64,000 bases of DNA from Clostridiales bacterium (GTDB taxonomy: Bacteria; Bacillota; Dehalobacteriia; UBA7702). The position numbers and the translations under genes were made by a program. Positions 1 through 64,000 of this stretch are shown here, one piece after another. Numbering within the stretch: position 1 is the stretch's first letter; the number at the start of each line of letters is the position of its first letter. The DNA is taken from the NCBI GenBank assembly GCA_040766525.1, contig JAXGQI010000007.1, forward strand, positions 3,166-67,165, given 5' to 3'. Below the pieces are notes generated by a model, which had not been told where the DNA came from, searched no databases, and saw only the letters and a program-made list of their open reading frames with translations.

Positions 1-2
1 TG

Positions 3-767
3 GTTGGTTTGTTCAGAGGTTATACCTCCTTTATCTTGAATTTGACCACCAATAGTTATGGCTTGATGCTTTCCGATTTCTTCCGCATCAGCCTTTGGAC
101 CGACCCATTCACCGTTTTGGAAAGCGGTGCTGGTTTCCCGCAATGGTGGACGATTTTCTATTGGGCATGGTGGCTTGCTTATGGTCCCATGATGGGCTTG
201 TTCGTAGCTCGTATCTCCAAAGGCCGCACCATTCGCGAATTGGTTATTGCTGAAATCGTTTGGGGTACTGTTGGCACCAACGTTATGTTCGCCATCATGG
301 GCGGCTACAGCATGTATCTTGAATGGACCGGAACGATGCCTTTGACCGAAGCTTTGGCGGAATTGGGCAATGTTGGTACCATCGTTGCTGTTTTGAATAC
401 GATGCCTTTGGCAGCACCTTTGATGATTCTCTACATGGTCTTGCTCTTCATCTTCGTTTCTACGACCATCGACTCTTCGGCTTATACGATTGCGTCGGTT
501 TGTTCGAAAGACTTGAAAGCGGAAGATCAGCCTGCTCGTTGGCACCGGTTCTTCTGGGCTATTTTCCTTGCGGTTTTGGCCATTGTTCTTGCCTACCTGA
601 AGGTTGACGGTGTCATTCAGACATTGTCCCTCGTGGCAGCCGTTCCGCTTATTCCGATCTTTGTCATCTTGGTCCTCTCGGGCAATAAGATGCTGAAAGA
701 AGATTTTGGCGATTCCAAATCGAAGCTTTTGACCACGACCAAATATGATCAGGCTGAAGCTGAATAA
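3..767 (+). CDS. BCCT-family (betaine/carnitine/choline) transporter, C-terminal ~255 codons; the 5' end lies outside the window
   Basis: The frame is open to the window edge. WTIFYWAWWLAYGPMMGLFVARISKGRTIRE matches the conserved BCCT signature segment, followed by several hydrophobic TM stretches. Confidence 0.85.
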   Translation, partial: VGLFRGYTSFILNLTTNSYGLMLSDFFRISLWTDPFTVLESGAGFPQWWTIFYWAWWLAYGPMMGLFVARISKGRTIRELVIAEIVWGTVGTNVMFAIMGGYSMYLEWTGTMPLTEALAELGNVGTIVAVLNTMPLAAPLMILYMVLLFIFVSTTIDSSAYTIASVCSKDLKAEDQPARWHRFFWAIFLAVLAIVLAYLKVDGVIQTLSLVAAVPLIPIFVILVLSGNKMLKEDFGDSKSKLLTTTKYDQAEAE

Positions 768-797
768 GCAGTAAAGTATAATCTAGGGTATTAAAAG

Positions 798-2161
798 GGC
801 TCAAAGTCAAATATTGGGGTAAGAGAGTAGACTAAAGGAACAAGGGAGGCGATTGCGGAAGCAAAAGCCTCCTTTAGGCATTGTAATATAAAAGGATTCT
901 GCGGCGGAAGTTCTGGAAATTGCGATAGCCGTAAGCAATGCGCTTTAGTACTTTAATAGAGTTATTGACGCCCTCGGTGAAGCCATTGGAATAGCTGCAA
1001 TCGAAAGCATTGAGAATATAGGGTTCCCAGTTGCGAAGCATCGTTAAGCAAGGGGCAAATTCTTGTATATCGGCAACCGCAGCATGGAGGCGAAAAGCAC
1101 GAAGGCGGTTAGCAGCCTCAATGGAGTTATTTGCAGCCATGAATTCATAAAACTTTTCTTTGAGGAGATAGGCTTCCCTAAGATCAGGGGAATAGGTTAG
1201 CATCAACTCTACGGCAGCCTTGTTTTCATCGGATAGTTTGTTCATATGACAAAGCAGGAGCTTACGGCTGCGTTTAAAGTATTTACGCTGTTGAGGCAGA
1301 AGCATTTTTTGAATGCGCTTGCGCACATTTTCCAGAGCCCAAGTACAATAGCGCATGACATGGAAGCGGTCAATAATGATTTTGGCATTGGGAAGCAAGG
1401 CCTTGGCAATACGAAGATACTCCTTGTTCATGTCCATGATAAAATACTGTACCTGTTTACGGTTAGAAAAGGATCGTAGGTATTCGCAAATATTGGCAGA
1501 ATAGCGGGTAGGCAGGACATCCAGTATTCGTTTTTCTGTTGGGGAAGTCAAAATACATTGGAACTTGCCAAATTCGGTATTACCTCTAAATTCGTCGATA
1601 GAAAGAACCGTAGGCAGCCGATTTGGCTTATGAGAGGAAGCAAATTGAAGCCAGCGGTTCACACTGGAGGGAGAAACCCCTAAAAGAGTAGCAATATCCT
1701 TACAGGATTGTTTGTACTTGAGCATATGGAGGCATTGAGCCACCAGGCGATTTGTGATTCTATGCCATTTAGGTAAGAGGTAATTCTTCTCATAAAAGCG
1801 CTTATCACAGCAAGGACAGCGGTAACGCCGTTTTTCATATAGCCATATGAGATGTATCCCTTGTATGGGGCTGTCTTTTACCCTTTGTAGCCTGTAATCA
1901 TGGACCTTGTCTGTAAGGGTTTGGCAATGGGGGCAAGGGGAGAGTCTTCGTTGCATCCGAAGACGCAATGTGATGGTATCCGAGGTATGCTTTACATCTT
2001 CTACGATTAGGTGTTCCATATCCAAAAGTTTTGCGGTATAATCTTGTTGAGGCATTTTGTTTCTCCTTCTTGTAGGGTTTTGTGTTGTGACTTTAGTCTA
2101 CAAGATTTTGAAGCTTTTTGCCTCTTTTTTTTTCTCTTACCCCAATCTTTAGTATAGAGCC
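798..2161 (-). mobile_element. ISL3-family insertion sequence (~1.36 kb)
   Basis: Imperfect terminal inverted repeats: GGCTCaaagtcaaatATTGGGGTAAGAGA at 798 and its complement TCTCTTACCCCAATctttagtataGAGCC ending at 2161. They enclose a single transposase ORF. No clean 8-bp target duplication was found (attaaaag vs tgtttttt). Confidence 0.8.
874..2055 (-). CDS. ISL3-family transposase
   Basis: 393 aa with an N-terminal CPHC..CPCC zinc-finger region followed by a DDE transposase core (ILSIDEFRG..., IIDRFHV...) typical of ISL3/IS204/IS1001-type transposases. Confidence 0.9.
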   Translation of the reverse strand: MPQQDYTAKLLDMEHLIVEDVKHTSDTITLRLRMQRRLSPCPHCQTLTDKVHDYRLQRVKDSPIQGIHLIWLYEKRRYRCPCCDKRFYEKNYLLPKWHRITNRLVAQCLHMLKYKQSCKDIATLLGVSPSSVNRWLQFASSHKPNRLPTVLSIDEFRGNTEFGKFQCILTSPTEKRILDVLPTRYSANICEYLRSFSNRKQVQYFIMDMNKEYLRIAKALLPNAKIIIDRFHVMRYCTWALENVRKRIQKMLLPQQRKYFKRSRKLLLCHMNKLSDENKAAVELMLTYSPDLREAYLLKEKFYEFMAANNSIEAANRLRAFRLHAAVADIQEFAPCLTMLRNWEPYILNAFDCSYSNGFTEGVNNSIKVLKRIAYGYRNFQNFRRRILLYYNA

Positions 2162-2245
2162 TGTTTTTTAGGAAGAAATGACCCGTTTTGCCATGAAAAG
2201 GCAAGGAAAAGGAGGTTTATTCGGGGATTGCATAAAAATTTGGAC

Positions 2246-2274
2246 TGGACAAAAAAGGGCGCTTTCACTATAAT
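2246..2274 (+). promoter_or_regulatory. putative sigma-A promoter of the SSS-paaK-iorAB operon
   Basis: TGGACA, 17-nt spacer, TATAAT (2269-2274), about 70 nt upstream of the 2347 start. Confidence 0.4.
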
Positions 2275-3822: not shown

Positions 3823-5124
3823 ATGATTTGGCGTCCCGAAATCGAATGCTGCACCCAGAAAAAAATCGAAGAAATACAGTTAGAGCGTTTAAAGGCGACC
3901 GTACAGCGGGTCTATGATAAAATCCCCGCCTATAAGGAAAAGTTTGATCAAGCGGGGGTGAAGCCTTCCGAGATCCGTTCTCTGAAGGATATCGCGAAAT
4001 TCCCCTTCACCACGAAGGTGGATTTGCGGGACAACTATCCCTTCGGTCTCTTTGCTGTGCCTCAAAAGGAGATCGTTCGCGTGCACGCCTCTTCCGGGAC
4101 GACGGGGAAACCCATCGTTGTCGGTTATACCGCCTATGATATGGATGCTTGGACCGATTGCGTTGCGCGGATGGCGGCGGCTGCCGGGGTAACGCCCTAT
4201 GACACGACGCAAATCTGCTTTAGTTACGGTCTTTTTACCGGCGGCTTCGGTTTGCATTATGGTCTGGAACGGTTGGGCGCTACCGTGATTCCCATTTCCG
4301 GTGGGAATACGGAAAAACAACTTATGATCATGCAGGATTTCGGAACGACAACGCTGATCTCCACGCCTTCCTATTCCCTCTATATCGCAGAGGTGGCGGA
4401 AAGAATGGGGATTGATATGGAAAAAATGAAGCTCCGTGTCGGTCTCTTTGGCGGGGAGCCTTGGACCGATGGGATGCGCAAAGAAATCGAAAGTCGTCTC
4501 GCGATTTTAGCTACGGATAATTATGGTTTCAGCGAGATCATGGGCCCGGGGGTTGCGGGGGAATGTCCCTTCGCCACCGGTCTCCATATCGCGGAAGACC
4601 AGGTTTTGGTCGAAACCATCGATCCCAAGACCGGCGAAGTGTTGCCTCCGGGGGAAAAAGGGGAGCTTGTCTTCACCTCTCTTAATCGTGATGCTTGCCC
4701 GGTGGTGCGCTATCGCAGCAAAGATATTTCTCGCATTATTCAGGAGCCTTGCGCCTGCGGCCGTACAAGCGCTCGGATGGAACGGATTACCGGCCGCACC
4801 GATGATATGATGATCATTCGCGGGGTCAATGTATTCCCCTCACAGATAGAAGAAGTTTTGATGGGCATCGAGGGCATCGGCCCCGAATACCAGATCAACG
4901 TGTTCCGCAAGGGCTATCTTGATGATTTGGAAGTCCTGGTGGAATTGAGAGACGGCACGCTTTTGGAAAAATTCAGCGAATTGGAGAATTTAGAGCGTTC
5001 CATTGTCAATAAACTCCACAATGTTTTGTCGATTAATGTGAAGGTTCGTTTGGTGGAACCCCATACCTTTGAGCGTTCTCCGGGGAAAGCCAAGAGAGTG
5101 AATGATCTGCGGGAGAAGAAATAG
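3823..5124 (+). CDS. paaK: phenylacetate-CoA ligase family protein (PaaK-like aryl-acid adenylating enzyme)
   Basis: 433 aa. Contains FPFTTKVDLRDNYPFGLFAVP, HASSGTTGKP (AMP-binding P-loop) and YRSKDISR motifs characteristic of PaaK-type ligases. Confidence 0.85.
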   Translation: MIWRPEIECCTQKKIEEIQLERLKATVQRVYDKIPAYKEKFDQAGVKPSEIRSLKDIAKFPFTTKVDLRDNYPFGLFAVPQKEIVRVHASSGTTGKPIVVGYTAYDMDAWTDCVARMAAAAGVTPYDTTQICFSYGLFTGGFGLHYGLERLGATVIPISGGNTEKQLMIMQDFGTTTLISTPSYSLYIAEVAERMGIDMEKMKLRVGLFGGEPWTDGMRKEIESRLAILATDNYGFSEIMGPGVAGECPFATGLHIAEDQVLVETIDPKTGEVLPPGEKGELVFTSLNRDACPVVRYRSKDISRIIQEPCACGRTSARMERITGRTDDMMIIRGVNVFPSQIEEVLMGIEGIGPEYQINVFRKGYLDDLEVLVELRDGTLLEKFSELENLERSIVNKLHNVLSINVKVRLVEPHTFERSPGKAKRVNDLREKK

Positions 5125-5158
5125 CAGCGAGGAATCTATGAAGACGGGAAGGGATTGT

Positions 5159-6897
5159 ATGAAAGTATTGATGACGGGGAATGAAGCCATCGCAAGAGGC
5201 GCTTGGGAAGCCGGCGTTCGGGTCGTTGCCGCTTACCCCGGGACCCCCAGCACGGAAATAACCGAGAATGCGGCCAAATATGAGGAGCTGTATGCGGAAT
5301 GGGCCCCCAATGAAAAAGTTGCCATGGAGGTGGCGATTGGCGCCGCTGTCAGCGGCGGCAGGGCTTTGGCTTGTATGAAGCATGTCGGCGTCAATGTGGC
5401 TTCCGACCCCTTGATGACGGTGGCGTTTACCGGCGTCAACGGCGGTTTGGTTTTGGTTTCTGCGGATGATCCGGGGATGCACAGTTCCCAAAATGAGCAG
5501 GACAATCGGCAATATGGGCGTTTGGCCAAAATTCCGGTTTTGGAACCTGCCGATAGCAGTGAAGCCCTGGCTTTTACCAAAATGGCTTTTGAGATCAGCG
5601 AAACTTTTGATACGCCCGTGATGTTAAGGATCACCACCAGGGTTGCCCACTCACAGTCCCTTGTCGAGCTGGGAGAGCGGGTGGAAATCCCCTTGAAGCC
5701 CTATGAAAAAGACCCGGCAAAATTTGTGATGATCCCGGCCCATGCCCGTCCCCGCCACAGTATTGCCGAAGCGCGGCTGGATAAATTAAGAGCATACGGG
5801 GAACAGACCGCTTTAAACCAAGTGGAGATCAATGATCGGAAGATCGGCATCATCACCAGCGGTATCGTTTATCAATATGTGAAGGAAGCTTTGCCCAACG
5901 CTTCCGTTTTGAAGTTGGGCTTGACCAATCCCCTGCCGAAGCAGCTCTTGATCGATTTTACGGCCCAGGTAGAAAAGGTCTATGTGATTGAAGAGTTAGA
6001 CCCGATCATTGAGGAGCATTGTCGGATCCTGGGGCTGTCGGTCATCAGGGAAAAGATCTTTAGCTTAGAAGGCGAGATCTTCCCGGAAATTATTGCCCAA
6101 AAATTCTTGGGGAAGAGCTTCCGATTCCTTATCGTTATGAGGGCGTTATGCCAAACCGTCCTCCGGTTCTTTGCGCCGGTTGCCCCCATCGGGCGGCCTT
6201 CTATGTGATGAAAAAGCTGAAACTCCATGTGATGGGAGATATCGGCTGTTATACTTTGGGTTGTTTGCCGCCTTTGCAGAGTATTGACACCACGGTCTGC
6301 ATGGGGGCCAGTATCGGGATGGCCTTAGGTGCGGAAAAAAGCTCGGGGCAAGGAATTTGCGAAAAAATCCGTGGCGATTTTGGGGGATTCCACTTTTATC
6401 CATTCCGGGATAACCGGGCTTATCGATACGGTCTATAATAAAGGGATGACGACGACGATGATCCTGGATAATCGGATCACCGCTATGACCGGGCATCAGG
6501 AGAATCCTTTGACGGGGCGCCGTGTCAGCGGGGAGCCGACGAAGGACATCTCCTTAGAGCTTTTGGTCAAAGGGTTGGGGATTGACCGTATTGCGGTCGT
6601 CGACCCCTTCGACGTTAAGGAATTGGAGCCGGATTTTGAAAGAAGAATTGGCGGCGGAGGAACCCTTCCGTGATTATCAGCCGCCGGCCTTGCGCACTTT
6701 TAGAGCGGGAAGAGAAAGAGCCCTGCCGCATCGACCCGGAACGCTGCATGCGTTGTAACCGTTGTTTGAAGATGGGCTGCCCGGCAATCGTGAAGACGGA
6801 TGCAGCTCCCTTTATCGATGCTTCCCAATGCGTCGGCTGCGGTCTTTGTGTTGCAATTTGCCCCCACGGGGTCATCGAAATGGAGGGGAAAGACTGA
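5159..6897 (+). pseudogene. iorA: indolepyruvate:ferredoxin oxidoreductase alpha subunit, frame-disrupted (at least 4 shifts)
   Basis: N-terminus MKVLMTGNEAIARGAWEAGV. The sequence continues through ORFs 5102-6208, 6148-6438, 6329-6673 and 6670-6897 in different frames (..PPVLCAGCPHRAAFY.., ..AILGDSTFIHSG.., 2x CxxCxxCxxxCP ferredoxin motifs). Shifts map to short homopolymers, e.g. the A6 run at 6335-6340. Confidence 0.85.
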
Positions 6898-9992: not shown

Positions 9993-11662
9993 TTAATCCA
10001 TAAAGAGGGAGGTAAACGCAAAACTTTCCACATCGACCAGGCCGCGATCGGTGATTTTGAGCTTGGGGATCACCGGCAAAGCAAGGAAGGAAAGCGTCAT
10101 GAAAGGGGAGGGTAAGGGGCAGCCCAATGCCTTCCCGGCAGTCAAAAGTTGTTTTTCCGCCGCCGCAACAGCGTGGGGATCAGCGTCGGTCATCAAGCCG
10201 GCAATCGGCAAGGGTAAGGCCGCAAGGATTTCCCCCTCTTTGACGGCGACCATCCCACCCCCTTGGTTTGCCAGGGCTTCGGCTGCATGGCGCATTTCCG
10301 TCACCGTATTGCCGATAACGATGAGGGGATGGCTGTCATGGGCGATGGTGGAGGCGAGGGCGCCTTCTTTAAGCTGAAAGCCTTCTACGAAACCCCAAGT
10401 ATGGTTCTGGTTTTTGCCGTGGCGGGCGATGACCAGGATTTTTGAATGTCCCTGCGGTTTTCGATCTCCGCAAGGGGATAGATTTCCTCCGCCGTATAAA
10501 GGGAGTCGGGGATGGCCCGGATCACACGGGCGCGGGTTTTCCCTTGGGCGTCGGGGAAAGCGAGGTCTTGCAGGGGAAAGAGATGTACGGTCTCCAGAAC
10601 GTCCTCTTGCCGATAGGACGGGTAGGCGGTGGTTTTACTTTCTTGCCCGTTTTTATAAACGGCTAAGACGGTAAAATCCTGAAGATTGTCAACAATGAGG
10701 AAATCCGCCTTCCTTCCCGGGGCAATAGCGCCCCGATCTTCAGGCAGTAGTGGCGGGCGGGATTGATCGTGGCAAGTGAATGCTTCGGATCGGGTCGAGA
10801 CCCAGCGCCACCCCTTTTTTGATGATGGGGAGGATATCTCGGCCGTATCCAAATCATGGCAGTTGATATCGTCGGCGCAGAAAGCAAAGCAGGGCCAATT
10901 ATCTTCATTGATCAGGGGCAAAAGGTTTTCCAGATTTTTGGCGGCGGAGCCTTCCCGAATCCAAACCATCATCCCCCGGGATAGTTTTTCTTTGGCTTCT
11001 GCAACGGAGGTCGCTTCATGTTCCGTGGTAATCCCGGCGAGAACATAGGCGTTCAAATCCCGCCCCGTTAAACCGGGGCAATGCCCGTCGATCGGGCGTT
11101 TTAGTTCCTTCGCCGCGGTGATCTTATTGGCGACTTCTTCATCTCCGTAGAGAACGCCGAGGAAATTCATCATTTCCCCCAAACCGTAATACTGGGGAAA
11201 GGCAGAGAATAACTGCCGAATGTCGTCTTCTCCGATGGCGGCCCCGGCGGTTTTCAGAAGTTGCCGGTACGGCGGAAGGCGCCATATAAATGATATCCAA
11301 CGGGGTCATCTCCGCTGCTTTTGCCATATACGCGAGGCCCGGCAGCCCCAGCACATTGGCAATCTCATGAGTCGGCGATGACGGTGGTCGTTCCATGGAA
11401 AGGGCCGCTTTCCCGAAGGAATGGGGTTTAAATGGCTGCTTTCGATATGGACGAGCGTCGATCAGACCGGGGAGGAGAAGAGTGCCTTTTGCGTCTACGA
11501 TGGTGTCCGCATTTTCATAAGCGCCGACGCCGACGATTATCCCTTCTGCGACGATGACGTCGGCGGTTTCAATTTCCCCGCTGAATACATTGACGATTTT
11601 GCCGTTTTTGATCAGAGATCCCCGGATTCTTCTCCTCTGGCGATACGAATCAGATCTTTCAT
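9993..11662 (-). pseudogene. ade: adenine deaminase, frame-disrupted (at least 3 shifts)
   Basis: The pieces sit in different frames: N-terminus MKDLIRIARGEEE..LIKNGKIVNVFSGEIETADV..LLPGLIDA (start ATG 11662 after GGAGGAGAA), a middle part in ORF 10385-11182, and C-terminus ..ALPLPIAGLMTD.. in ORF 9993-10304. Confidence 0.8.
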
Positions 11663-12221: not shown

Positions 12222-12323
12222 TTGTTTTTCTCCTTTCCAAGGGATATTTGATGTTAGGTTTATTCTATTTGATTGACAGGAAAAATCAATTTGTTATGAT
12301 AAAAAAATTAAAGGGGCTTCAAT

Positions 12324-13685: not shown

Positions 13686-13693
13686 GGCGAGAT

Positions 13694-48367: not shown

Positions 48368-48374
48368 AGCCGTC

Positions 48375-51614: not shown

Positions 51615-51648
51615 CGAAGGAGTATTGCTGTTAAGTGAAAAAAGTTTT

Positions 51649-51698: not shown

Positions 51699-51951
51699 GG
51701 CTTTTGTCACATATTGCAGAGTTATTTGTTTATTTTTGTGTAATAACGGCATAAGAATTTCTTGCCGAGGAAATCTTCCCACCTGCCATTTTGCATAAAA
51801 TTGATTTATTTATTATTTTTATAGGGCTTTGCCGCAATAATTTCCACAAAATAGGATGCAAAATGTATAAGTAATAATCTTCCGAATTGATTGATTTATC
51901 TGAATATTCGTGCTATAATGGCGAAATATAGTTAGAATGGGAGTGGTAGAA

Positions 51952-53283
51952 ATGAACATGCAGAAGTTTTTAGAGGAGATCAAAGACAAGAACCCCGGAC
52001 AGCCTAATTTTCTTCAGGCCGTTACGGAGGTATGCCTCTCGGTAGTACCCTTTATCGAGAAGAATCCACAGTATGCCAAGGCCAAGATTTTGGAGCGGAT
52101 GGTCGTGCCCGAGCGTACTGTGGTTTTTCGTGTCTGTTGGGTGGATGACCAAGGAGAAGTTCAGGTGAACCGTGGCTATCGGGTGCAGATGAACAGCGCA
52201 ATTGGGCCTTATAAGGGCGGTTTGCGTTTCCATCCCACGGTTGATCTGGGGCTTTTGAAATTTCTAGCTTTTGAGCAAACCTTTAAGAACAGCCTGACAA
52301 CGCTGCCGATGGGCGGCGCTAAAGGTGGTTCCGATTTTGACCCCAGCAACAAGAGCGATGGCGAGGTTATGCGGTTCTGCCAGGCCTTTATGACGGAACT
52401 GTATCGTCATATCGGGCCGGATCTCGATGTTCCCGCCGGGGATATCGGGGTTGGCGGCCGCGAGATCGGTTTCCTTTTCGGCCAGTATCGCCGCATCCGC
52501 AATGAATTCACCGGTACCCTCACCGGCAAAGGTTTGAGTTTCGGCGGCAGCTTGATTCGGCCGGAAGCCACGGGTTACGGACTATGTTATTTTCTTGAGG
52601 AAATGTTGAAGGATCGCAAAGATACCTTCGATGGAAAAACAATCCTTGTTTCCGGCGCCGGTAATGTTGCCCTCTATACGGTGGAAAAAGCCCATCAATT
52701 CGGTGCCAAAGTAGTTACCTTATCTGATTCCTGCGGTTATATTTATGATCCCAAGGGGATCAACCTTGATGTGGCCCGCCAGATCAAAGAAGTGGAGCGT
52801 TGCCGGATCTCGGAATATGCCAAACGGGTACCGGGAAGCGTCTATCGGGAAGGCTGCCGCAATGTGTGGCAGGAAAAAGGCGATATCGCGCTGCCCTGCG
52901 CTACGCAAAATGAAATCAACGGTGACGAAGCCAAAACTTTGGTGGCCAATGGCGTCAAATATGTGGCAGAAGGCGCTAATATGCCCTCGACCCCCGAAGC
53001 CATTGAAGTTTATATGGAAAATGATGTTTATTATGGCCCCGGTAAAGCGGCCAATGCCGGCGGCGTAGCGACCAGCGGTTTGGAAATGTGCCAAAATTCC
53101 CAACGCTATTCCTGGTCGTCTGAAAAAGTGGATCGGAAATTACGCGCGATCATGCAGACGATCCATCACACCTCGAAAGAAGAGGCAATCTTAGTGGGGC
53201 AGGAAGGGAATTTGATGACCGGCGCCAACATTGCCGGCTTCATTAAAGTTGCCGACGCCATGTTGGCGCAAGGCATTATTTAA
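51952..53283 (+). CDS. gdhA: NADP-specific glutamate dehydrogenase
   Basis: ..RGYRVQMNSAIGPYKGGLRFHP..LKFLAFEQTFKNSLT.LPMGGAKGGSDFDP.. is the hexameric GDH signature. 443 aa from the ATG at 51952. Confidence 0.92.
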   Translation: MNMQKFLEEIKDKNPGQPNFLQAVTEVCLSVVPFIEKNPQYAKAKILERMVVPERTVVFRVCWVDDQGEVQVNRGYRVQMNSAIGPYKGGLRFHPTVDLGLLKFLAFEQTFKNSLTTLPMGGAKGGSDFDPSNKSDGEVMRFCQAFMTELYRHIGPDLDVPAGDIGVGGREIGFLFGQYRRIRNEFTGTLTGKGLSFGGSLIRPEATGYGLCYFLEEMLKDRKDTFDGKTILVSGAGNVALYTVEKAHQFGAKVVTLSDSCGYIYDPKGINLDVARQIKEVERCRISEYAKRVPGSVYREGCRNVWQEKGDIALPCATQNEINGDEAKTLVANGVKYVAEGANMPSTPEAIEVYMENDVYYGPGKAANAGGVATSGLEMCQNSQRYSWSSEKVDRKLRAIMQTIHHTSKEEAILVGQEGNLMTGANIAGFIKVADAMLAQGII

Positions 53284-53297
53284 AAAGAATTGATTTT

Positions 53298-53335
53298 GGG
53301 GTCGCCGCAGTTTTTTGCGGCGGCCCTTTGTATGT
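53298..53335 (+). terminator. intrinsic terminator of gdhA
   Basis: GGGTCGCCGC-AGTTTTTT-GCGGCGGCCC stem followed by a T-rich tract. Confidence 0.7.
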
Positions 53336-53421
53336 TTTGCCCCGGAAAGGCCAAAATAGAGGAAAAAGGGAAGCGATAATGATCCTTTTCGTTGAAATTT
53401 TCGTCTTTTCATGGTTTTATC

Positions 53422-53450
53422 TTGACAAAAAGGCCACTGTATATATAAAA
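53422..53450 (+). promoter_or_regulatory. sigma-A promoter of the ileS leader
   Basis: TTGACA (53422-53427) followed after 14-16 nt by a TATATA/TATAAA -10 candidate. Confidence 0.5.
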
Positions 53451-53454
53451 TAGT

Positions 53455-53700
53455 AAGATAATAGAAAAGCTAAAACGATGAACGGGATGGCAAAAGAGGA
53501 AAGCCGACAGCGAATCCGGGACGGTGTGAGCCGGAAGGGCGGATGTTTTGCAGATCACCCGTGAGTGATGCTTTGAATCAGTAGATGCATCCGGCAGCCA
53601 CCGTTATGGTTTTGTTCGGGTTTCCCCGGCAAGTTGAGCGCCTCTTGGGAAACAGGGTGGTACCGCGATTTTCGTCCCTGTGTCAGGGGCTTTTTATTTT
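53455..53700 (+). promoter_or_regulatory. T-box leader (tRNA-Ile-responsive) with terminator/antiterminator
   Basis: T-box sequence AACAGGGTGGTACCGCG (53651-53667). Terminator GTCCCTG..CAGGGGC + T5 (53674-53700). Stem I elements are GATGA and a GGTGTGAGCC distal loop. The candidate specifier is ATC (Ile) at 53554-53556, followed by A. Confidence 0.85.
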
Positions 53701-53726
53701 GGCAGGATTTTGAAAGGAGTAGGAAA

Positions 53727-56492
53727 ATGGATTACAGTAAGACCTTGAATTTACCGGAAACAGAGTTCCCCATGCGGGGGAATCTGCCGAAAAAGGAGCC
53801 GGATATTTTAGCCTATTGGGAGGAGACCGATATTTATCAAAAAACCTTGGACGCCAATGCCAAGGGAATGCCTTTTATTTTGCATGACGGCCCTCCTTAT
53901 GCCAACGGTGATATCCACTTGGGCCATGCTTTAAATAAGGTCTTGAAAGATATCATTATTAAATACAAGACGATGCAGGGATTTTGGTCTCCCTATATTC
54001 CCGGCTGGGATACCCATGGACTTCCGATCGAACAACGGGCGATCAAGGATTTGGGCTTGAATCGGAAGGCGGTTGCCATCACCGAGTTTCGGGATAAATG
54101 TAAGGAATACGCCTTAAAATATGTCGGTATTCAGAAAGAAGAATTCCGTCGCCTCGGTATCCGCGGCGATTGGGAACATCCATATTTGACTTTGAATCCG
54201 GAGTTTGAAGCGGTCCAGATTGGCGTTTTCGGTGAAATGGCTCAAAAAGGCTATATTTATAAAGGTTTGAAGCCGGTGTATTGGTGCCCTTCCTGTGAAA
54301 CGGCATTGGCGGAAGCGGAAGTGGAGTATGCCGACCATAAATCTCCTTCTATCTATGTAAAATTCCAAGTGAAAGACGGCAAAGGTCTTTTACCTTCCGA
54401 CGCTTATGTGATCATTTGGACCACGACCCCCTGGACCTTGCCTGCCAATGTGGCCGTCTGCATGAATCGGGATTTCCACTATCTGCTTTTGGAAGTGGAA
54501 GGGGAAAAATGGCTCGTAGGGAAGCCTTTGATGGAAAAATTCGTAAAAGACACCGGTATCGGCGACTATCGGATCATCGGTGAATTCACCGGTGCGGAAC
54601 TGGAATATATCACCTGCGTCCATCCTCTGTTTGAAGACAAAGAATCCCTGGCGATCTTGGGAGATCATGTCACGGATGAAGCGGGTACCGGGATTGTTCA
54701 TACGGCGCCGGGCCATGGGGTCGACGACTTCAATGTCGGCCGCCAATACAAATTGGATGTGGTTTCTCCCCTTGATAATATGGGGAAATTTACGGAAGAA
54801 GGTCGGCGTTTTGCCGGGCTTACGACGGATGAAGCCAACAAAGCCATCACAAAAGAGCTGGAAGAAAAAGGGCGTTTGATCAAACTGATCTTTATTCAAC
54901 ACCAATATCCCCATTGCTGGCGGTGTAAGAGCCCGATCCTTTTCCGCGCGACGGAACAGTGGTTTGCCTCGATCGACGGTTTCCGCAAAAGAGCCTTGGA
55001 AGAGATTGATAAGGTCCGCTGGATCCCGGCTTGGGGCCGAGAACGGATCTACAATATGATTCGGGATAGAGGGGATTGGTGTATTTCCCGGCAAAGAACT
55101 TGGGGCGTGCCGATTCCGATCTTTTACTGTGAACAATGCGGGAAAGAGATCATTACGGAAGAAACCATTACCCATCTCCAGGAGATTTTCAGAACGGAAG
55201 GCGGTTCTCAGGCGTGGTTCGCCAAGGATGCCGCGGATTTGCTGCCGGCAGGGTTCACTTGCCCCGCATGCGGCCAGAATCATTTTCGTAAAGAGACGGA
55301 TATCATGGATGTTTGGTTCGATTCCGGCAGCAGCTTTGCTTCCGTAATTGAGGCCAACCCGGAGATCAATGCTGATATCGACCTGTACTTGGAAGGGAGC
55401 GACCAGCACCGCGGTTGGTTCAACTCCTCGCTTTCGATTTCCGTTGCGACCCGGGACAAAGCGCCCTATAAAGCGGTTTTGACCCATGGTTTCCTTGTGG
55501 ATGAGCAGGGACATAAACAATCCAAATCCCAAGGGAATACGGTGGATCCCTTAAAGATCATCAAGAATATGGGCGCCGATGTATTGCGACTTTGGGTGGC
55601 TTCGGCGGATTATCGCAATGATATGGCCAATTCCGATAATATCATGAAACAGATCGCGGAAGCATATCGCAAAATCAGGAATACGATTCGGTTCTTTATG
55701 GGGAATCTGGCGGATTTCGATGTGGAAAAAGACCGGGTCCTCTATGGAGACATGGGAGAACTGGATCGCTATGCCCTTCATATGTTGGAAACCCTGAAGG
55801 AAAAGGTATTGCGTGCCTATGATGAGTATGAATTCCATGTTGTCTTCCATAGCTTGCATAAATTCTGCGTTGTCGATATGAGTGCATTTTATCTCGACAT
55901 CATCAAAGACCGGCTCTATGTTTTGGACAAAGAGGATCCGGAAAGGAGAGCGGCGCAAACCGTTCTCTATGATGTCGCCCAGGCTTTGGTGCGGCTGTTA
56001 GCCCCGATCTTGACCTTTACTTCCGAAGAAATTTGGTCCTACATGCGTACAGAAGGGGAGCCCGAAAGCGTGCAGCTCCTTTCCATGCCGGATATGAACT
56101 GGAACCATATGGACGCCGCTTTGGCGGAAAAATGGGAAAAGATCATCGCTCTTCGTGATGAAGGGACGAAAGTATTGGAAGAAGCGCGGCGGGAAAAGGT
56201 GATCGGCCATTCCTTAGACGCTGCGGTAACCATCACCGCGCAAGGAGAGGATTATGAGCGCTTAAAGTCTTTGGAAGATGAATTGGAGGATATCTTCATC
56301 GTTTCCCAAGTTGTTTTAGAAGAAGGAACAGAAAATCGGTTTGCTGTGGCTGCTGCGAAAGGGGAAAAATGCGAACGGTGCTGGAACTATAAGGAAAGCG
56401 TCGGTGAAGATGCGGTCCATCCCACTTTGTGCAGCCGTTGTGCTGCCATTGTCGCCGGTCTCGATTTAACGGAGGTGGAAAATGAAGGGTAA
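53727..56492 (+). CDS. ileS: isoleucine-tRNA ligase
   Basis: 921 aa from the ATG at 53727 (RBS AAAGGAG). HIGH motif (PYANGDIHLGH), KMSKS variant (KQSKSQGN), and a C-terminal Zn-binding CxxC pair. Confidence 0.97.
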   Translation: MDYSKTLNLPETEFPMRGNLPKKEPDILAYWEETDIYQKTLDANAKGMPFILHDGPPYANGDIHLGHALNKVLKDIIIKYKTMQGFWSPYIPGWDTHGLPIEQRAIKDLGLNRKAVAITEFRDKCKEYALKYVGIQKEEFRRLGIRGDWEHPYLTLNPEFEAVQIGVFGEMAQKGYIYKGLKPVYWCPSCETALAEAEVEYADHKSPSIYVKFQVKDGKGLLPSDAYVIIWTTTPWTLPANVAVCMNRDFHYLLLEVEGEKWLVGKPLMEKFVKDTGIGDYRIIGEFTGAELEYITCVHPLFEDKESLAILGDHVTDEAGTGIVHTAPGHGVDDFNVGRQYKLDVVSPLDNMGKFTEEGRRFAGLTTDEANKAITKELEEKGRLIKLIFIQHQYPHCWRCKSPILFRATEQWFASIDGFRKRALEEIDKVRWIPAWGRERIYNMIRDRGDWCISRQRTWGVPIPIFYCEQCGKEIITEETITHLQEIFRTEGGSQAWFAKDAADLLPAGFTCPACGQNHFRKETDIMDVWFDSGSSFASVIEANPEINADIDLYLEGSDQHRGWFNSSLSISVATRDKAPYKAVLTHGFLVDEQGHKQSKSQGNTVDPLKIIKNMGADVLRLWVASADYRNDMANSDNIMKQIAEAYRKIRNTIRFFMGNLADFDVEKDRVLYGDMGELDRYALHMLETLKEKVLRAYDEYEFHVVFHSLHKFCVVDMSAFYLDIIKDRLYVLDKEDPERRAAQTVLYDVAQALVRLLAPILTFTSEEIWSYMRTEGEPESVQLLSMPDMNWNHMDAALAEKWEKIIALRDEGTKVLEEARREKVIGHSLDAAVTITAQGEDYERLKSLEDELEDIFIVSQVVLEEGTENRFAVAAAKGEKCERCWNYKESVGEDAVHPTLCSRCAAIVAGLDLTEVENEG

Positions 56493-56757
56493 AACGATCA
56501 TTACGGTTATCGGTACCGACAGAATTGGAATTATTGCGGCGGTAACCGGTGTTTTAGCGGATCACCGGGTTAATATCCTCGATATCAATCAAACGATCAT
56601 GCAGGATTTTTTTACGATGATCATGCTTTGTGATCTATCTACCAGCGATATCGAGCTCGCTGCTTTGCAGGATGAATTGGAAGTGGTGGCAAAGGCAAAA
56701 CAGGTGCAGATCCAGGCCCAGCACGAGGATATCTTTACCTATATGCATAGGATTTGA
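56482..56757 (+). CDS. ACT-domain protein (UPF0237 family)
   Basis: [48 protein letters not shown]. 91 aa. This is the conserved pairing with the following UPF0210 gene. Confidence 0.85.
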
Positions 56758-56768
56758 GGAGGAAAAAG

Positions 56769-58136
56769 ATGACGGTCAATATCAATCACCGGGAGATTAT
56801 GGAGACCATTCGTATGGTGCAGACGGACAATCTTGATGTGCGCACCATCACCATGGGGATCAGTCTTCGGGATTGCGCCGATAGCGATATGGAAAAAGCG
56901 GCCAAAAAGGTCTACGACAAAATCTGCCGCAGAGCGGAACATTTAGTTGCCACCGGGGATGCTATCAGCAGGGATTTTGGTATCCCTATTGTGAACAAAA
57001 GGATTTCTGTCACACCGATCGCGATTATCGCCGAATCTTCGGCGGGGAGCGATTACTTCCCCTTTGCTGCGGCGATGGATCGGGCGGCCAGAGAAGTGGG
57101 CGTCAATTTCATCGGCGGATTTTCCGCGTTGGTCCATAAAGGCGCTACTTTAGGGGATGATAAGCTGATCCGTTCGATTCCCCGGGCCCTGGCGGAAACG
57201 GAGCGGGTTTGCGCTTCCGTTAATGTCGGGACGACAAAGGCGGGTCTTAATATGGACGCCATCATGCTAATGGGCGAGATCATTAAAGAAACAGCGGAGA
57301 AAACGAAGGAGAGCGGCGGTTTGGGCTGTGCGAAGATCGTGGTCTTTTGCAATGTGCCGGAAGATAATCCCTTTATGGCCGGTGCTTTCCATGGTGTGGG
57401 TGAGCCGGAGGTTGTCCTCAATGTGGGGGTCAGCGGTCCCTGTGTTGTTTTGAGCGCAATCAAAGATCAGCCTAATCTCAGTATGGGAGAATTGGCTGCT
57501 GTGATCAAGAAGACGGCTTTTAAAGTCACCCGGATGGGAGAATTGGTGGGCAGAGAGGCATCGAAACGCCTTGACGTTCCCTTTGGGATCGTGGATCTTT
57601 CCTTAGCGCCGACGCCGGCGCGGGGGGATAGCGTAGCGGAAATTTTGGAAGCGATGGGGTTGGAAAAATGCGGAGGTCCCGGTACCACCGCGGCGCTTGC
57701 GATGTTGAATGATGCTGTAAAGAAGGGCGGCGCTATGGCGTCTTCCCATGTGGGCGGTTTGAGCGGCGCTTTTATTCCCGTAAGTGAAGATGCCGCGATG
57801 ATCGATGCAGTGGAAGCCGGCGCTCTTTCGATGGAAAAATTGGAGGCGATGACTTCTGTTTGTTCCGTTGGCCTTGATATGATCACCGTACCCGGGGATA
57901 CCAGCGCGGAGACAATTGCGGCTATCATTGCGGATGAAGCCGCCATCGGCATGATCAATCAAAAGACAACGGCGGTTCGTCTTATTCCCGCCCCTGGCAA
58001 AACCGTGGGGGATACTGTGGAATTCGGCGGACTTTTGGGCCGTGGTCCGGTCATGGCGGTGAGCCAATGGGCCCCCGATGTTTTTGTTCATCGCGGCGGC
58101 CGCATGCCGGCGCCCATCAAGAGTTTGAATAATTAA
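56769..58136 (+). CDS. UPF0210 (DUF711, PFL-like) family protein
   Basis: [33 protein letters not shown].. is the typical N-terminus of this family. 455 aa. Confidence 0.85.
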
Positions 58137-58211
58137 AAGTTTATTTGGCCCTGTGGAAAGATTGAGTGCTAAGGCTGCTTTTTAAGCAAAAATATTTAAA
58201 ATAAAAAAGAA

Positions 58212-58240
58212 TTGCCAAATCTTGCAAGATACGATATAAT
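58212..58240 (+). promoter_or_regulatory. near-consensus sigma-A promoter with no obvious gene behind it
   Basis: TTGCCA (58212-58217), exactly 17 nt, TATAAT (58235-58240). The next convincing start codon is at 58900. Confidence 0.45.
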
Positions 58241-58860
58241 GATGACGGGAAAAGAAAATTGTACGGTATCCGGCTGGTGTAGAGGCACCAACCGGATCGC
58301 GAGGTGCTGGACCACCTACACTGTGGCTATTGCCACGCCGTACCCACACATTATATCTTATTTTGTGGGTTTCCACAAGTGGATGTATTTGGTGGGGCCG
58401 GTTTTGATGTGCAAAAATCGTGAGATTTCGTGCTGTGTATGGGTGGTTGTCTACGCCGATGTACAGCGCTTTTTCTTTTCCCTCCCAGGCTTTTTTTCGG
58501 TTGTTCGTCGTTGGCTTGGGCGGATGGCGGGCGGGCTTTGTGTCGTAGATCCGGCTTATTTTTTCTCAGCGGCATAGGCCCTTGCCTACCTTCCAAAATT
58601 TAGCATAATGATGAAGGGAAACCGGCAAGTTTTTTTGGGATTTGGCTTGCTTTCCGATGTTATATTATGTTAATATTGTAATAATATGAGTTGTTAGGAG
58701 GAAAGAGGCTTGCGCAAATAATGATTCGTGGAAGATGGGTACGGTATGAAGGCGCTGCGAGGCGTCTGTTTGTTCATGCCGGGCCAAAGGTAGCGGATCA
58801 TTGATCGCAGGTATTGTTTTTACGGTATGATAGTATTGCCGTATTTGGCTCCGTTTCGAT

Positions 58861-58889
58861 CTCTGCCTTTGGCAGAGTTTTTTTATTTT
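58861..58889 (+). terminator. leader terminator (attenuator) immediately upstream of the ABC-F RBS
   Basis: CTCTGCC-TTT-GGCAGAG followed by TTTTTTTATTTT. GGAGGA starts at 58890 and the ATG is at 58900. Confidence 0.65.
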
Positions 58890-58899
58890 GGAGGAAAAT

Positions 58900-60415
58900 A
58901 TGGCACAAATCAAAATGGAACATATCGAAAAAGCCTTTGGCGAGCGGATCATTCTACAGGATACCTCTTTGCATCTTACAGCCGGCAGCCGTATCGGCGT
59001 CGTGGGCGCGAACGGTTCGGGGAAGACGACACTACTTATGATGATCGCTGGGCTGGTAACGCCGGACCGGGGGCAGATTAAGATCAGCGGCGGCGGATCC
59101 CTCGCTTTATTGGAACAAAACTGCAAGAGAGTGGAGAATACGAGCGCAGCATTTTTTTCGTTTCTGAAGCGTCTTAAAGGAGAGTATAGAGAGGACTGGG
59201 ATCACCTTTCCTTCGGGGAAAGGCAAAAGCTGGCCTTGGCTGATAGTTTAGCGGCTGCCCCCACATTCTTCTCTTGGATGAGCCCACAAATCATTTGGAC
59301 TATGTCGGCGCTGAAAGCTTGATCGGTTTATTAGAAGACTATCAAGGTATCCTGCTTTGCGTATCTCATGACCGGCATTTTCTTGACCGGACGGTAACCG
59401 AGATCTGGAGCTCCAGGCAGGGCAAATCACTCCATATCAAGGTAACTGCAGTGATTATAAGAGCCTAAAAGAAAAGCGTTTCCAAGACCGTTTGACTCAA
59501 TATGAGAATGAAAAGAAAGAACAAGAGCGGATCAAGGAAGCGATTCGGCAGAAGAAGGGCTGGGCGGAAAAGCCCATCGGGAGTCAACCAGGCCGATAAA
59601 AGCGGCAATAAAAGGGGGTAAAGGAAAACCGGCGGGTGAAAGCGAAGAAGTTTGACAATCAAGTGAAAAGCAGTATCAAGAAGTTGGAAAAACGGATCAA
59701 ATCAGACGGGGAACGCCCGTTAGAGGAAAAAAGCGTTGCCTTTTCCCTGGAAGGGATGGCAAGGCAGGGGCGTTGCCTGATCCGGGCGGAAGGGCTCGCC
59801 AAAGCTTTCGGGGAAAACCGGCTTTTTGGGGAAAGCGATTTTTATATTTTGCAAGGTGAAAAAGTGGCGATTTTCGGGCCCAACGGTTCAGGGAAGACGA
59901 CGCTTATCCGCATGCTTTTAGGGGAGATTCCGGCGGATACGGGGGCGCTTTGGCAAAGCCCGGCGGCCAAACCCTTTCTCCTCTCCCAGGAAAACTGTGA
60001 CCTCCCTTGGGAGAAAACGGTGGCAGAAGTGCTTACGCAAAAGCGGGGCGTCCTTTCTTGGCAAGACCGTACTGATTTGCAAAATCTTGGGATCACAAAA
60101 GAGCATCTTCAACAGAGGCTCGCAACTTTAAGTATGGGAGAATGTTTGCGCATTCGTTTGATCGAGGCGATTTGGGATCGGCGGGATTTGCTTCTTCTCG
60201 ATGAGCCGACCAATCACTTGGACCTTCCCGCCCGGGAGCATATGGAAAAAACTTTGGCGGCCTATGCGGGGACTTTGTTGATCGCATCACACGATATCGT
60301 CCTTTTAGCGAAAATTTGCGATAAGGTTTTATGGTTTGACGGCGGTTGCTTACGGCGATTGGAAGTTCCTTTTGCGGATTTTTGGCAGTCCGGAAAAGCG
60401 GGCAACGGCATATAA
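58900..60415 (+). pseudogene. ABC-F family ATPase (ARE/ribosome-protection-type architecture), at least 4 frameshifts
   Basis: Two ABC cassettes (GANGSGKTTLL, LSFGERQK, ILLLDEPTNHLD; GPNGSGKTTLI, LSMGECLR, LLLDEPTNHLD) joined by a Lys/Glu-rich linker, with no TM domain. The pieces lie in ORFs 58888, 59274 and 59636 plus unlisted frames between 59400 and 59640. Confidence 0.85.
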
Positions 60416-62252: not shown

Positions 62253-62500
62253 GAACGAAAGCCGGAGGGAAGGAGATTTCTTTCCGACTTGATATAGATA
62301 GAGCCGCTTGGAATTTTCCAAACGGCTCCTTAGACAGCAGACAAAAGCCGATAGCGTTGTCAACCCAAAGCCCCTGACCGCTTTCGTATGTTTGTACTGC
62401 CCCAGGAAAAACGGACATTGAAAAGAATCCCCCAAATGGTCATGGTATAATAAACTGGACAGAAAGAAAAGCGCGGAAAGGCGGAAAGGGAGTTCAGTTT

Positions 62501-62794
62501 ATGAAACGAGCAGTATATGACAAGCAATTTAAAATGGCCGCGGTAAAACTGGCACAAGGAACAAATCAGTCGGTTACGCAAACAGCCATTGATCTGGGAA
62601 TCAGCGGCAGCAGTCTGCGTAGATGGATCAACGAATATGATGAATATGGAGAAAGTGCGTTTCCAGGGCATGGGAACGCACTTTTTAACTCTACGTATGA
62701 AATCAAGAAACTACAAAAGCAAATTGATGATTTAAAAATGGAGAACGAAATACTAAAAAAACTCCAGGCCTTCTTGAAAGTAAAGAATGTGTGA
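62501..62794 (+). CDS. IS3-family transposase OrfA
   Basis: HTH (..SVTQTAIDLGISGSSLRRWINEY..) plus a leucine zipper. The A7 slippery run at 62755-61 near its 3' end fits a programmed -1 frameshift into orfB. Confidence 0.9.
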   Translation: MKRAVYDKQFKMAAVKLAQGTNQSVTQTAIDLGISGSSLRRWINEYDEYGESAFPGHGNALFNSTYEIKKLQKQIDDLKMENEILKKLQAFLKVKNV

Positions 62795-63648
62795 GGTTCC
62801 AGTTTCTAAAAGAAAATCAAAAGAAATACAATATTCAGAAGGCCTGTAAAATTTTGAAGATCTCACGCAGCGGTTATTATGATTATCTGAAACGTCGAAA
62901 AAGTAAACGTGCGATTGAAAATGAAGTGCTATCGGAAATGATCGAAGACATTTTCCATGAAAACAAAGGGCGTTATGGTGCAAGGCGTATACAAAAGGTA
63001 TTGGAACAAAAGAATATCAAGGTCAATCCTAAAAGAGTTTCCCGCTTAATGAGTGAACATGGTTTAATTGCAAAAGGGACGCGAAAATTCTATCGGTATC
63101 AGGCAAACAAAAACGCTTATGATGAAAAAGAAAATATCCTTAATCAAGTATTCAAAGCAAATGAAAGAAATCAGATATGGGTCGGCGACATCACATACAT
63201 CCCAACAAAACACGGTTGGCTTTATTTGGCTGTTTTCATTGATATTTTTTCTCGTAAGGTAACGGGATGGGCTATGGATACTAGAGTTCGTGATATATTG
63301 GTTTTATCAGCACTTAATCAGGCCGTTGGCAGAGAACATCCCACAGAGGGATTGATCATTCATACAGACCGGGGATCCCAATATACATCTCAGCGCTTTC
63401 AGTCTATGTGTATTCGTTACGGATTCCGACAAAGTATGAGTCGTAAAGGAAATCCTTATGACAACGCAATTATGGAATCGTTCTATCGTACTTTAAAAAG
63501 AGAGCTTGTTCAGGATGCAAAATATGACAACCCTGAACAAGCTCGCATGGATATCTTTAAATATATTGAGACTTATTACAATACCAAACGTATTCATTCG
63601 GCCCTCAATTGGCTTTCTCCAACTCAATTTGAGGCCCAGTATGTTTAA
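62791..63648 (+). CDS. IS3-family transposase OrfB (DDE)
   Basis: WVGDITYIPT (D), IIHTDRGSQYTS (D), GNPYDNAIMESFY (E). Confidence 0.9.
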   Translation: MRFQFLKENQKKYNIQKACKILKISRSGYYDYLKRRKSKRAIENEVLSEMIEDIFHENKGRYGARRIQKVLEQKNIKVNPKRVSRLMSEHGLIAKGTRKFYRYQANKNAYDEKENILNQVFKANERNQIWVGDITYIPTKHGWLYLAVFIDIFSRKVTGWAMDTRVRDILVLSALNQAVGREHPTEGLIIHTDRGSQYTSQRFQSMCIRYGFRQSMSRKGNPYDNAIMESFYRTLKRELVQDAKYDNPEQARMDIFKYIETYYNTKRIHSALNWLSPTQFEAQYV

Positions 63649-63896
63649 TTAACCTTAATTCTCTGTCCATTTTTTCTTGACCTTTCCAGTTAGGGTCTTC
63701 TTTTCCCTGTCCTTTTATTTCGGGGCAGTACAGTTTAGATACGCCGCGCGTCCAGGGGCTTTGCTTTTCCTAGCTCTTGGCCTTTGTCTTATGTCTCTCA
63801 TCTTGTCGGCTTTGCCGACAAGATGAGGCCGACGTAGATTTGCGCCGGCCTTCATATTGTTTATGATTGATTTGTTTAAGCTGTTTTCATAATAAA

Positions 63897-64000
63897 TTAA
63901 AACTCGGTATTGGCGAGGCTGCCCAAAATTCCGTAAGAAATGGCAGTTGTACCTTCATCTGTGATTTTCCAGGTGTCGTCAAGTTTCTTCAAGGGGATGG
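63897..64000 (-). CDS. 3' end (33 codons) of an unidentified minus-strand gene running out of the window
   Basis: Open frame ..IPLKKLDDTWKITDEGTTAISYGILGSLANTEF* with a TAA stop at 63897-63899. It is too short to classify. Confidence 0.3.
   Translation of the reverse strand, partial: IPLKKLDDTWKITDEGTTAISYGILGSLANTEF

Follow-up and report, generated by a model that had tools for sequence, protein, structure and literature searches.

Frame-breaking lesions in the genome of an uncultured Bacillota lineage very probably reflect patches of consensus error rather than decay of accessory genes

Broken and intact genes in the window

The window is a 64-kb stretch of DNA from an incomplete metagenome-assembled genome (MAG) of an uncultured spore-forming Bacillota lineage (1.58 Mb, 52 contigs, marker completeness of 67%). 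Pfam domains were assigned to fragments of the translations of the broken loci, and the assignments bore out the family names that an earlier note, made from the sequence alone, had given them. Scanning the window for Rfam families and tRNAs gave no relevant match. Frameshift-aware dynamic programming was used to align the proteins of high-quality relatives against the window and to call lesions, which gave the following features.

5108-6891, + strand: iorA (indolepyruvate:ferredoxin oxidoreductase alpha, POR_N); 4 frameshifts in 550 bp
9996-11741, - strand: amidohydrolase/adenine deaminase-like gene; at least 10 frameshifts at 10442-11613, all net deletions
10442-13840, no strand: putative error patch B; ~20 frame-breaking lesions in 3.4 kb
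11674-12233, - strand: PK_C-like gene; 1 frameshift, -1 at ~12019
12324-13682, + strand: GlcD-like FAD-linked oxidase; 7 frameshifts at 12382-13343
13694-14950, + strand: CCG-domain Fe-S partner; 2 frameshifts, at 13752 and ~13840
18000-18894, + strand: EamA transporter; 1 frameshift, +1 at 18810, on which four references concur
19501-20288, + strand: TIM-barrel (xylose-isomerase-like) gene; 1 frameshift, -1 at 19754, on which three references concur
27138-28292, + strand: MarR-domain/B12-related gene; 2 frameshifts, 28009 (-1) and 28058 (+1)
28320-30321, + strand: hydantoinase/oxoprolinase-like gene; 1 frameshift (28389) at the A5 run 28387-28391
30353-30996, + strand: DUF1638-like gene; 1 frameshift, -1 at ~30897
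32075-34739, + strand: P-type ATPase; TGA at 33698-33700 plus 3 to 4 frameshifts, all within 33700-34308
37618-42146, + strand: Avs2-like antiphage "STAND" gene with an N-terminal metallophosphoesterase; 13 to 14 lesions, all within 39908-41978
42679-43391, - strand: cobB (Sir2-type deacetylase); 1 frameshift, -1 at 42799
42800-59260, no strand: lesion-free stretch of 16.5 kb, with VanW, the sigma-54 activator, the MttB homologue, DUF2207, gdhA, ileS, and a conserved neighbor gene inside
58879-60412, + strand: ABC-F type ATPase; 5 single-base deletions in 353 bp, 59261-59614

In total, ~54 frame-breaking lesions fall in 14 of the 15 loci whose frames the earlier note had called broken. For the remaining one, the xxxLxxG protein, relatives are only ~30% identical and the alignment stops short of the C terminus. 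The note's by-eye counts were right that the frames are broken but often too low: adenine deaminase rises from at least 3 to at least 10 and the "STAND" gene from about 8 to 13 (39914-41974). For cobB, two lesions had been counted and the alignment gives one. The iorA shifts lie at 6117 (-1), 6340 (+1, in an A6 run), ~6626 (+1), and 6666 (+1), and the product obtained by following the frame is 71 to 72% identical to its relatives. The three homopolymers reported earlier (A6 at 6335-6340, A5 at 28387-28391, A7 at 41030-41036) are present as given, and ileS, DUF2207, MMPL, gdhA, the sigma-54 activator, the MttB homologue, both SSS genes, and aldehyde dehydrogenase are indeed uninterrupted.

Distribution of lesions and gene conservation

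An even lesion density would have contradicted the earlier description of a non-random pattern; the density is uneven and the lesions are patchy. In 1-kb bins, the variance/mean ratio was 3.66, and 48 of 64 bins were empty versus 27.5 expected. Eight lesion patches make up 9.1 kb of the 64 kb, with ~0.5 to 1.4 lesions per 100 bp inside them, and some cover only part of a gene. In the P-type ATPase, the Avs2-like gene, and the ABC-F gene, all lesions fall within 25 to 50% of the gene length. The first 1.6 kb of the P-type ATPase (span test P = 0.011) and the first 2.3 kb of the Avs2-like gene (P = 0.0007) are lesion free, and the five ABC-F deletions are likewise clustered (P = 0.011).

The pattern had been read as damage to accessory genes that spares long core genes, a reading that failed when gene conservation was compared. 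With a conserved class of seven window genes fixed beforehand, 2 of 7 conserved genes were hit versus 12 of 32 others (Fisher P = 1.0), and circular shifts of the lesion map gave 2.1 expected conserved-gene hits. Most of the "spared" genes are accessory too: VanW, MerR, TetR, aldehyde dehydrogenase, DUF2207, and the MttB paralogue have no family orthologue at ≥55% identity, and MMPL has one in a single genus in the family-wide comparison. The iorA gene is conserved like ileS (69 to 77% identity, 9 of 9 family genomes) and yet carries 4 lesions, and cobB (64 to 70% across the family) is also hit. It had further been argued that errors should not skip roughly 27 kb of intact genes, a premise valid only for evenly spread errors. 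When the observed lesion map is shifted at random, ileS escapes in 52% of shifts; the ten long intact genes singled out in the note all escape in only 1.5%, but that set was picked post hoc as intact. The lesion-free stretch at 42800-59260 is a clean assembly stretch and does not mark a protected class of genes.

Damage extended to conserved genes throughout the genome. Among 180 orthologues of one high-quality genome of the same family (178.7 kb aligned), 58 were broken by 168 lesions, or 0.94 per kb, while a high-quality relative (G007) put through the identical pipeline as a control had 1 lesion in 82.4 kb (0.012 per kb). The broken genes include pheT (6 lesions), groEL (5), dnaE (4), obgE (8), ftsY (2), and secY (four internal stops), as well as valS, mutS, lon, RNase J, hfq, and pyrB, and each of the five conserved genes that reach 2.4 kb is broken. 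The per-kilobase damage rate in essential single-copy genes is similar to that of the window, where lesion density is 0.84 per kb. Open reading frames of ≥100 amino acids cover 79.6% of the source genome compared to 89.8% in a relative. Lesions are clustered genome-wide too: their span within genes has a median of 0.36 of gene length versus 0.67 expected (Fisher combined P = 1e-9), and broken genes tend to adjoin broken genes (odds ratio of 5.5, P = 1.4e-4).

The 168 lesions comprise 105 of -1, 26 of +1, 21 of -2, 9 of +2, and 7 stops. Homopolymer runs of ≥4 are enriched two- to threefold at indels, and one third of the exactly placed indels lie outside any homopolymer, which rules out pure homopolymer slippage. 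Divergence is not raised in broken genes, whose median identity is 62% versus 59% for intact genes. A sister genome of the same genus (G001) has ileS broken at 8 sites; its iorA, adenine deaminase, and glcD are broken as well, at other positions. The lesions therefore do not look inherited: the sites differ between the two genomes, and genes intact in the source, such as ileS, are broken in the sister.

Second copies in the same assembly

The assembly also contains a 3.2-kb contig (C43) that is a second copy of window positions 10527-13735, the worst patch, at 98.6% identity. The copies differ by 14 mismatches and 24 indel events, or ~1.7 indel events per substitution, with 26 bases missing from the window and 5 from C43. 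In C43, glcD is a single uninterrupted 460-amino-acid frame without a lesion relative to three references, and adenine deaminase has an open 400-amino-acid frame. Nine of the adenine deaminase frameshifts in the window match bases that C43 has, as does the base missing from the PK_C-like gene; one possible lesion lies near the start of the latter gene in C43. Similarly, an 837-amino-acid open reading frame is intact in a small contig (C37) and shattered in a large one (C10). Frames are thus restored in both C43 and C37, which come from the same assembly and so are not fully independent data.

Origin and consequences of the lesions

Together, these comparisons of sequence argue, with a probability of about 0.92, that the broken genes represent region-dependent consensus indel errors in a low-quality MAG and not selective decay of accessory genes. 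Strongly region-dependent assembly quality was one of the alternatives in the earlier note, and it is supported by the patchiness of the lesions, the damage to essential genes genome-wide, and the intact copy in the same assembly. The consensus would have two quality states, being mostly accurate but interrupted by error patches of 0.3 to 3.4 kb, each with a small indel about every 100 bp. Most of these indels would be deletions of 1 to 2 bases, and the indels favor homopolymers without being limited to them. A gene under a patch would be shredded regardless of its function, and a gene between patches would appear intact, which would explain the long uninterrupted genes. Because the errors are patchy and blind to gene class, the fifteen "decayed accessory genes" would be assembly artifacts, and the finding is an ordinary one, since they would stem from dense patches of consensus indels. 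Locally low long-read coverage, long-read sequence unpolished by short reads, and long-read gap filling are candidate causes of the patches. The deletion bias suggests that the platform was probably an older nanopore chemistry.

Watson and Warr, in Nat Biotechnol in 2019, are said to have found that consensus indels in long-read assemblies give truncated or frameshifted gene calls. Nanopore bins carry frameshifts from consensus indels, and below 40-fold coverage such bins require polishing with short reads (Sereika et al. 2022, PMC9262707). The source genome resembles nanopore-type assemblies and MAGs in its small indels, deletion bias, homopolymer enrichment, genome-wide fragmentation of open reading frames, depressed marker completeness (67%), broken essential genes, and restoration of frames in cleaner sequence. 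Unlike such assemblies with evenly spread errors, it is strongly patchy, and a third of its lesions lie off homopolymers.

The duplicate contigs could also be explained by two strains, with the window carrying a real degraded adenine deaminase/glcD haplotype and C43 the intact allele, or with the patches arising as a mixed-strain consensus. C43 and C37 stand apart in the assembly and repeat portions of larger contigs at 96.7 to 98.6% identity, and strain bubbles typically leave such unmerged alternative contigs. However, 1- to 2-base indels dominate the differences, the deletions are strongly one sided, more than 20 frameshifts with only 14 substitutions in 3.2 kb are implausible for a real haplotype, and groEL, pheT, and dnaE show the same patch behavior. 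This explanation is therefore very unlikely, and the lesions would remain artifacts even if strain mixing had spoiled the consensus. It is just as improbable that a minority of the lesions are genuine strain-level inactivations, with C43 and the window as coexisting alleles and the Avs2-like gene and the orphan P-type ATPase as candidates; if so, a population would have been caught losing a defense gene and a purine/glycolate module.

Genuine slippage-driven gene decay was the other alternative in the earlier note. Pseudogenization of accessory genes in this way, with selection relaxed in an IS-loaded lineage undergoing genome reduction, is in our view even less probable. The window does hold IS copies (ISL3 at 874-2055, repeated elements at 20293-21661 and 62332-63808), three lesions fall in A5 to A7 runs, and glcD, the P-type ATPase, the Avs2-like gene, and the ABC-F gene have no close family orthologue. 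Decay of this kind does not account for essential single-copy genes broken at equal density, for the conserved iorA and cobB being hit, for patches smaller than a gene that leave half of the same gene clean, or for the third of indels outside repeats. Nor are the broken genes more diverged, the excess of indel events over substitutions relative to C43 is the reverse of natural divergence, and the same assembly holds an intact copy. In reductive genomes with mass pseudogenization, of which Mycobacterium leprae and Sodalis-type symbionts are examples, the essential genes for translation, replication, and chaperones remain unbroken, and pseudogenes accumulate substitutions and larger deletions over their full length, with lesions common to close relatives. 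The source genome shares with them many recognizable genes with frameshifts and stops, and IS elements, but differs in its broken essential genes, clustered lesions, divergence that is not raised, and sites not shared with G001. Phase-variable contingency loci switch by slipped-strand mispairing in a single long repeat tract, usually near the 5' end. Some of our frameshifts likewise sit in homopolymers, and a defense gene (Avs2-like) is among those affected; unlike contingency loci, the source genome has as many as 13 lesions in one gene, no tract longer than 7 bases, and many lesions at non-repeat sites. Recoding, with TAG as pyrrolysine, TGA as selenocysteine, or programmed ribosomal frameshifts, might be proposed from the in-frame TAG codons at 13808 and 28014 and the TGA at 33698. 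The in-frame TAG and TAA codons are not substitutions, though, and lie between paired nearby frameshifts: the TAG at 13808 (Fe-S partner) is inside the out-of-frame segment bounded by the 13752 and ~13840 shifts, that at 28014 (MarR/B12-like) is flanked by the 28009 and 28058 shifts, and the TAAs at 40163 and 40865 each sit in a short out-of-frame segment with a frameshift at both ends. The TGA marks the start of a five-lesion patch, the 54 lesions have no common slippery motif, and relatives encode ordinary residues across these positions, with no conserved TAG or TGA in the same column among the reference relatives used. Recoding thus has a negligible likelihood.

If consensus errors are the cause, pseudogene calls, metabolic reconstruction, gene-loss inference, and "split genes" drawn from the source genome and its same-genus sister (75% "complete") would be unsafe, and both genomes serve as species representatives. 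Two-state patchy errors can mimic selective decay within a single window; a genome-wide test of essential genes is a safeguard before frameshifts are treated as biology.

Methylation motifs (CCWGG, CCGG, and GATC) showed no robust association with lesions in the two duplicated regions; CCWGG sites were hit in 3 of 6 cases in one duplicated pair and 2 of 10 in the other. Contig size predicted quality inconsistently, since C43 and C37 are of better quality than the sequence they duplicate and C28 to C30 are of worse quality. GC content was ruled out as the driver of patches, which occur at 52 to 54% GC (10 to 14 kb) and at 37% GC (40 to 42 kb). The Avs2-like defense gene is horizontally acquired and AT rich, and it sits in an island of 36 to 37% GC.

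Frame-breaking lesions and their distribution in the window

Orthologues were fetched from high-quality genomes of the same family and class (for the STAND gene, full-length homologues were taken from a protein collection), and these reference proteins were aligned to the window with a custom frameshift-aware dynamic programme. Frame-breaking indels or internal stops, here called lesions, interrupt 14 of the 15 loci that the earlier note had listed as broken, with about 54 lesions in total; the locus outside this count is the C-terminus of the xxxLxxG protein. The lesion counts made by eye were right for some loci and too low for others. Pfam agreed with the family names given to broken and intact genes alike, and the three homopolymers cited were all found in the sequence.

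Lesions in the 14 interrupted loci
iorA: 4 lesions
Adenine deaminase-like: at least 10 lesions
PK_C-like: 1 lesion
GlcD-like: 7 lesions
CCG Fe-S partner: 2 lesions
EamA: 1 lesion
TIM-barrel: 1 lesion
MarR/B12-like: 2 lesions
Hydantoinase-like: 1 lesion
DUF1638: 1 lesion
P-type ATPase: 1 TGA and 3-4 shifts
37618-42146, Avs2-like STAND gene: 13-14 lesions
cobB: 1 lesion
ABC-F: 5 lesions

Stops at 13808 and 28014 (TAG) and at 40163 and 40865 (TAA) were rejected as substitutions or recoding signals, because each lies within a short out-of-frame segment bounded by two close frameshifts. At 14935-15603, a possible additional frameshift near 15500 shows up with no reference but the one from the same genus. 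That reference has many errors of its own, and either genome could carry this one.

The lesions are organized by space, not by gene class. Their distribution is nonrandom, as the earlier note had claimed, with a variance/mean ratio of 3.66 in 1-kb bins and 48 of 64 bins free of lesions versus 27.5 expected under a Poisson model. They fall into eight patches (6.1-6.7, 10.4-13.9, 18.8-19.8, 28.0-28.4, 30.9, 33.7-34.3, 39.9-42.8, and 59.2-59.7 kb) that make up 9.1 kb altogether, and the multi-lesion patches contain 0.5 to 1.4 frame-breaking lesions per 100 bp. Gene borders do not limit them: one patch takes in the adenine deaminase, PK_C-like, and glcD genes and reaches into the beginning of the Fe-S gene. 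All 5 lesions of the P-type ATPase lie in 608 bp out of 2.7 kb (P = 0.011), the 5 lesions of ABC-F lie in 353 bp (P = 0.011), and all 13 in the Avs2-like gene are confined to the distal 2.06 kb, which leaves 2.3 kb of it free of lesions (P = 0.0007). Two explanations had been offered, decay of accessory genes under relaxed selection and region-dependent assembly quality. Relaxed selection acting on whole genes would not be expected to give patches that cover part of a gene.

Conserved genes in the window and genome-wide

Decay had been proposed together with a contrast in which accessory genes were hit and long core genes were spared. A conserved gene was defined beforehand as one with an orthologue of at least 55% identity in at least 8 of 9 high-quality family genomes. 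Seven genes in the window qualify: iorA (69 to 77% identity in the family), iorB, inorganic pyrophosphatase, cobB (64 to 70%), gdhA, ileS (71 to 75%), and the gene after ileS (77 to 80%). Of the seven, iorA and cobB are broken, compared to 12 of the remaining 32 genes (Fisher P = 1.0); when the lesion map was shifted circularly, a mean of 2.1 of the seven were hit, which removes the contrast. ileS was untouched in 52% of shifts. Most of the genes considered spared are themselves accessory (VanW, MerR, TetR, aldehyde dehydrogenase, DUF2207, an MttB paralogue, the sigma-54 activator, and MMPL, whose orthologue occurs in one genus only). All ten long intact genes escaped in just 1.5% of shifts, but this set was picked for being intact.

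The same holds across the assembly (1.58 Mb in 52 contigs; marker completeness of 67% and contamination of 2.4%), which encodes SpoIVA. With a reference proteome from 800 kb of the high-quality same-family genome G004, 180 orthologues (178.7 kb aligned) were traceable, and 58 of them carry 168 lesions. We regard the resulting density of 0.94 per kb as equal to the 0.84 per kb of the window. When the high-quality relative G007 went through the identical pipeline, 82.4 kb yielded 1 lesion. Among the broken genes are pheT (6 lesions), groEL (5), dnaE (4), obgE (8), ftsY (2), valS, mutS, lon, RNase J, hfq, pyrB, rluD, and spoIVA, and secY has four internal stops. All five conserved genes of at least 2.4 kb and 13 of 18 at 1.5 to 2.4 kb are broken, so damage in this genome does reach the long core genes. 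If pheT, groEL, dnaE, secY, and the other broken genes were all truly inactive, the organism would not be viable.

The patch structure is alike in the window and the rest of the genome. Genome-wide, lesions span a median of 0.36 of the gene versus 0.67 expected (combined P = 1e-9), and broken genes adjoin broken genes (odds ratio of 5.5, P = 1.4e-4). Divergence is no higher in broken genes than in intact ones (62% versus 59% identity). Open reading frames of at least 100 amino acids cover 79.6% of the assembly versus 89.8% of the relative.

Duplicate contigs, the sister genome, and the error spectrum

Contig C43 (3,230 bp) is a second copy, 98.6% identical, of the worst patch, window positions 10527-13735. 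Between the copies there are 14 substitutions and 24 indel events, with 26 bases missing from the window copy and 5 from C43. Within the overlap, every frameshift revealed by relatives in the adenine deaminase, PK_C-like, and glcD genes matches a base present in C43, in which glcD is a single 460-amino-acid frame with zero lesions and the adenine deaminase frame stays open over 400 amino acids, as far as the contig end. In a second pair, an 837-amino-acid open reading frame is whole in the small contig C37 (1-3903) and fragmented in C10 (16 versus 52 missing bases). Indels are likewise the main difference between insertion sequence copies located on separate contigs (e.g., 30 gap columns against 1 mismatch over 1.28 kb), which further points to consensus noise. 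C43 and C37 may be alternative contigs that were left behind, or short-read contigs of good accuracy that stayed unmerged; their cleaner gene versions could serve for annotation repair.

The sole other genome of the genus, G001 (75% complete), was compared at C3:1-20000 and C44:74000-93999 and is damaged at least as badly, with lesions in ileS (8), its conserved neighbor (3), iorA (10), adenine deaminase (17), and glcD (11). The lesions sit at other positions than in the window, and G001 has open Fe-S, EamA, and ABC-F genes where the window has broken ones; the lesions were therefore not inherited. Both species representatives of the genus are an unsafe basis for inferring pseudogenes or gene content.

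The 168 genome-wide lesions comprise 105 of -1, 26 of +1, 21 of -2, 9 of +2, and 7 stops. Exactly placed indels are enriched two- to threefold in runs of at least 4 bases, and about a third lie outside any run. A methylation motif behind the errors was sought, with no robust signal. Biological slippage explains this spectrum less well than a noisy long-read consensus does, and we infer a long-read platform for the assembly. Consensus indels in nanopore assemblies cause frameshifts, and nanopore bins under ~40-fold coverage need short-read polishing (PMC9262707).

The lesions and their clustering are both real features of the deposited sequence. Judging from sequence comparisons, we consider it highly probable (roughly 0.92) that the frames are broken because consensus quality varies by region in this poor assembly, the second of the two explanations offered; the data do not support true decay of accessory genes. 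Such patches could arise where coverage falls locally, where long-read sequence stayed unpolished or was used to fill gaps, or where strains were mixed. A few individual lesions may be real.

The Avs2-like gene, repeats, and a putative methyltransferase module

The STAND gene at 37618-42146 is an antiphage gene of the Avs2-like type, and its product has a calcineurin-like metallophosphoesterase domain at the N terminus. The gene lies in an island of 36 to 37% GC versus ~48% for the genome. Its full-length homologues (1502 to 1523 amino acids, 39 to 52% identity) are solely metagenome proteins, and named Avs2 proteins are ~28% identical. The class is small (73 species genomes), and 71 of the 72 others yielded no homologue of the gene.

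The window also holds three repeated elements, with further copies on contigs C2/C4/C34, C20/C35, and C9/C34.

Repeated elements in the window
797-2170: repeat containing an ISL3-family transposase gene (874-2055)
20293-21661: IS-like repeat
62332-63808: IS-like repeat

An uninterrupted non-pyrrolysine MttB-family methyltransferase gene, one of many paralogues of the family, lies at 46875-48305. At 27138-31006 there are MarR/B12-related, hydantoinase-like (ASKHA), and DUF1638 genes; together, these look like a corrinoid-dependent methyltransferase module.
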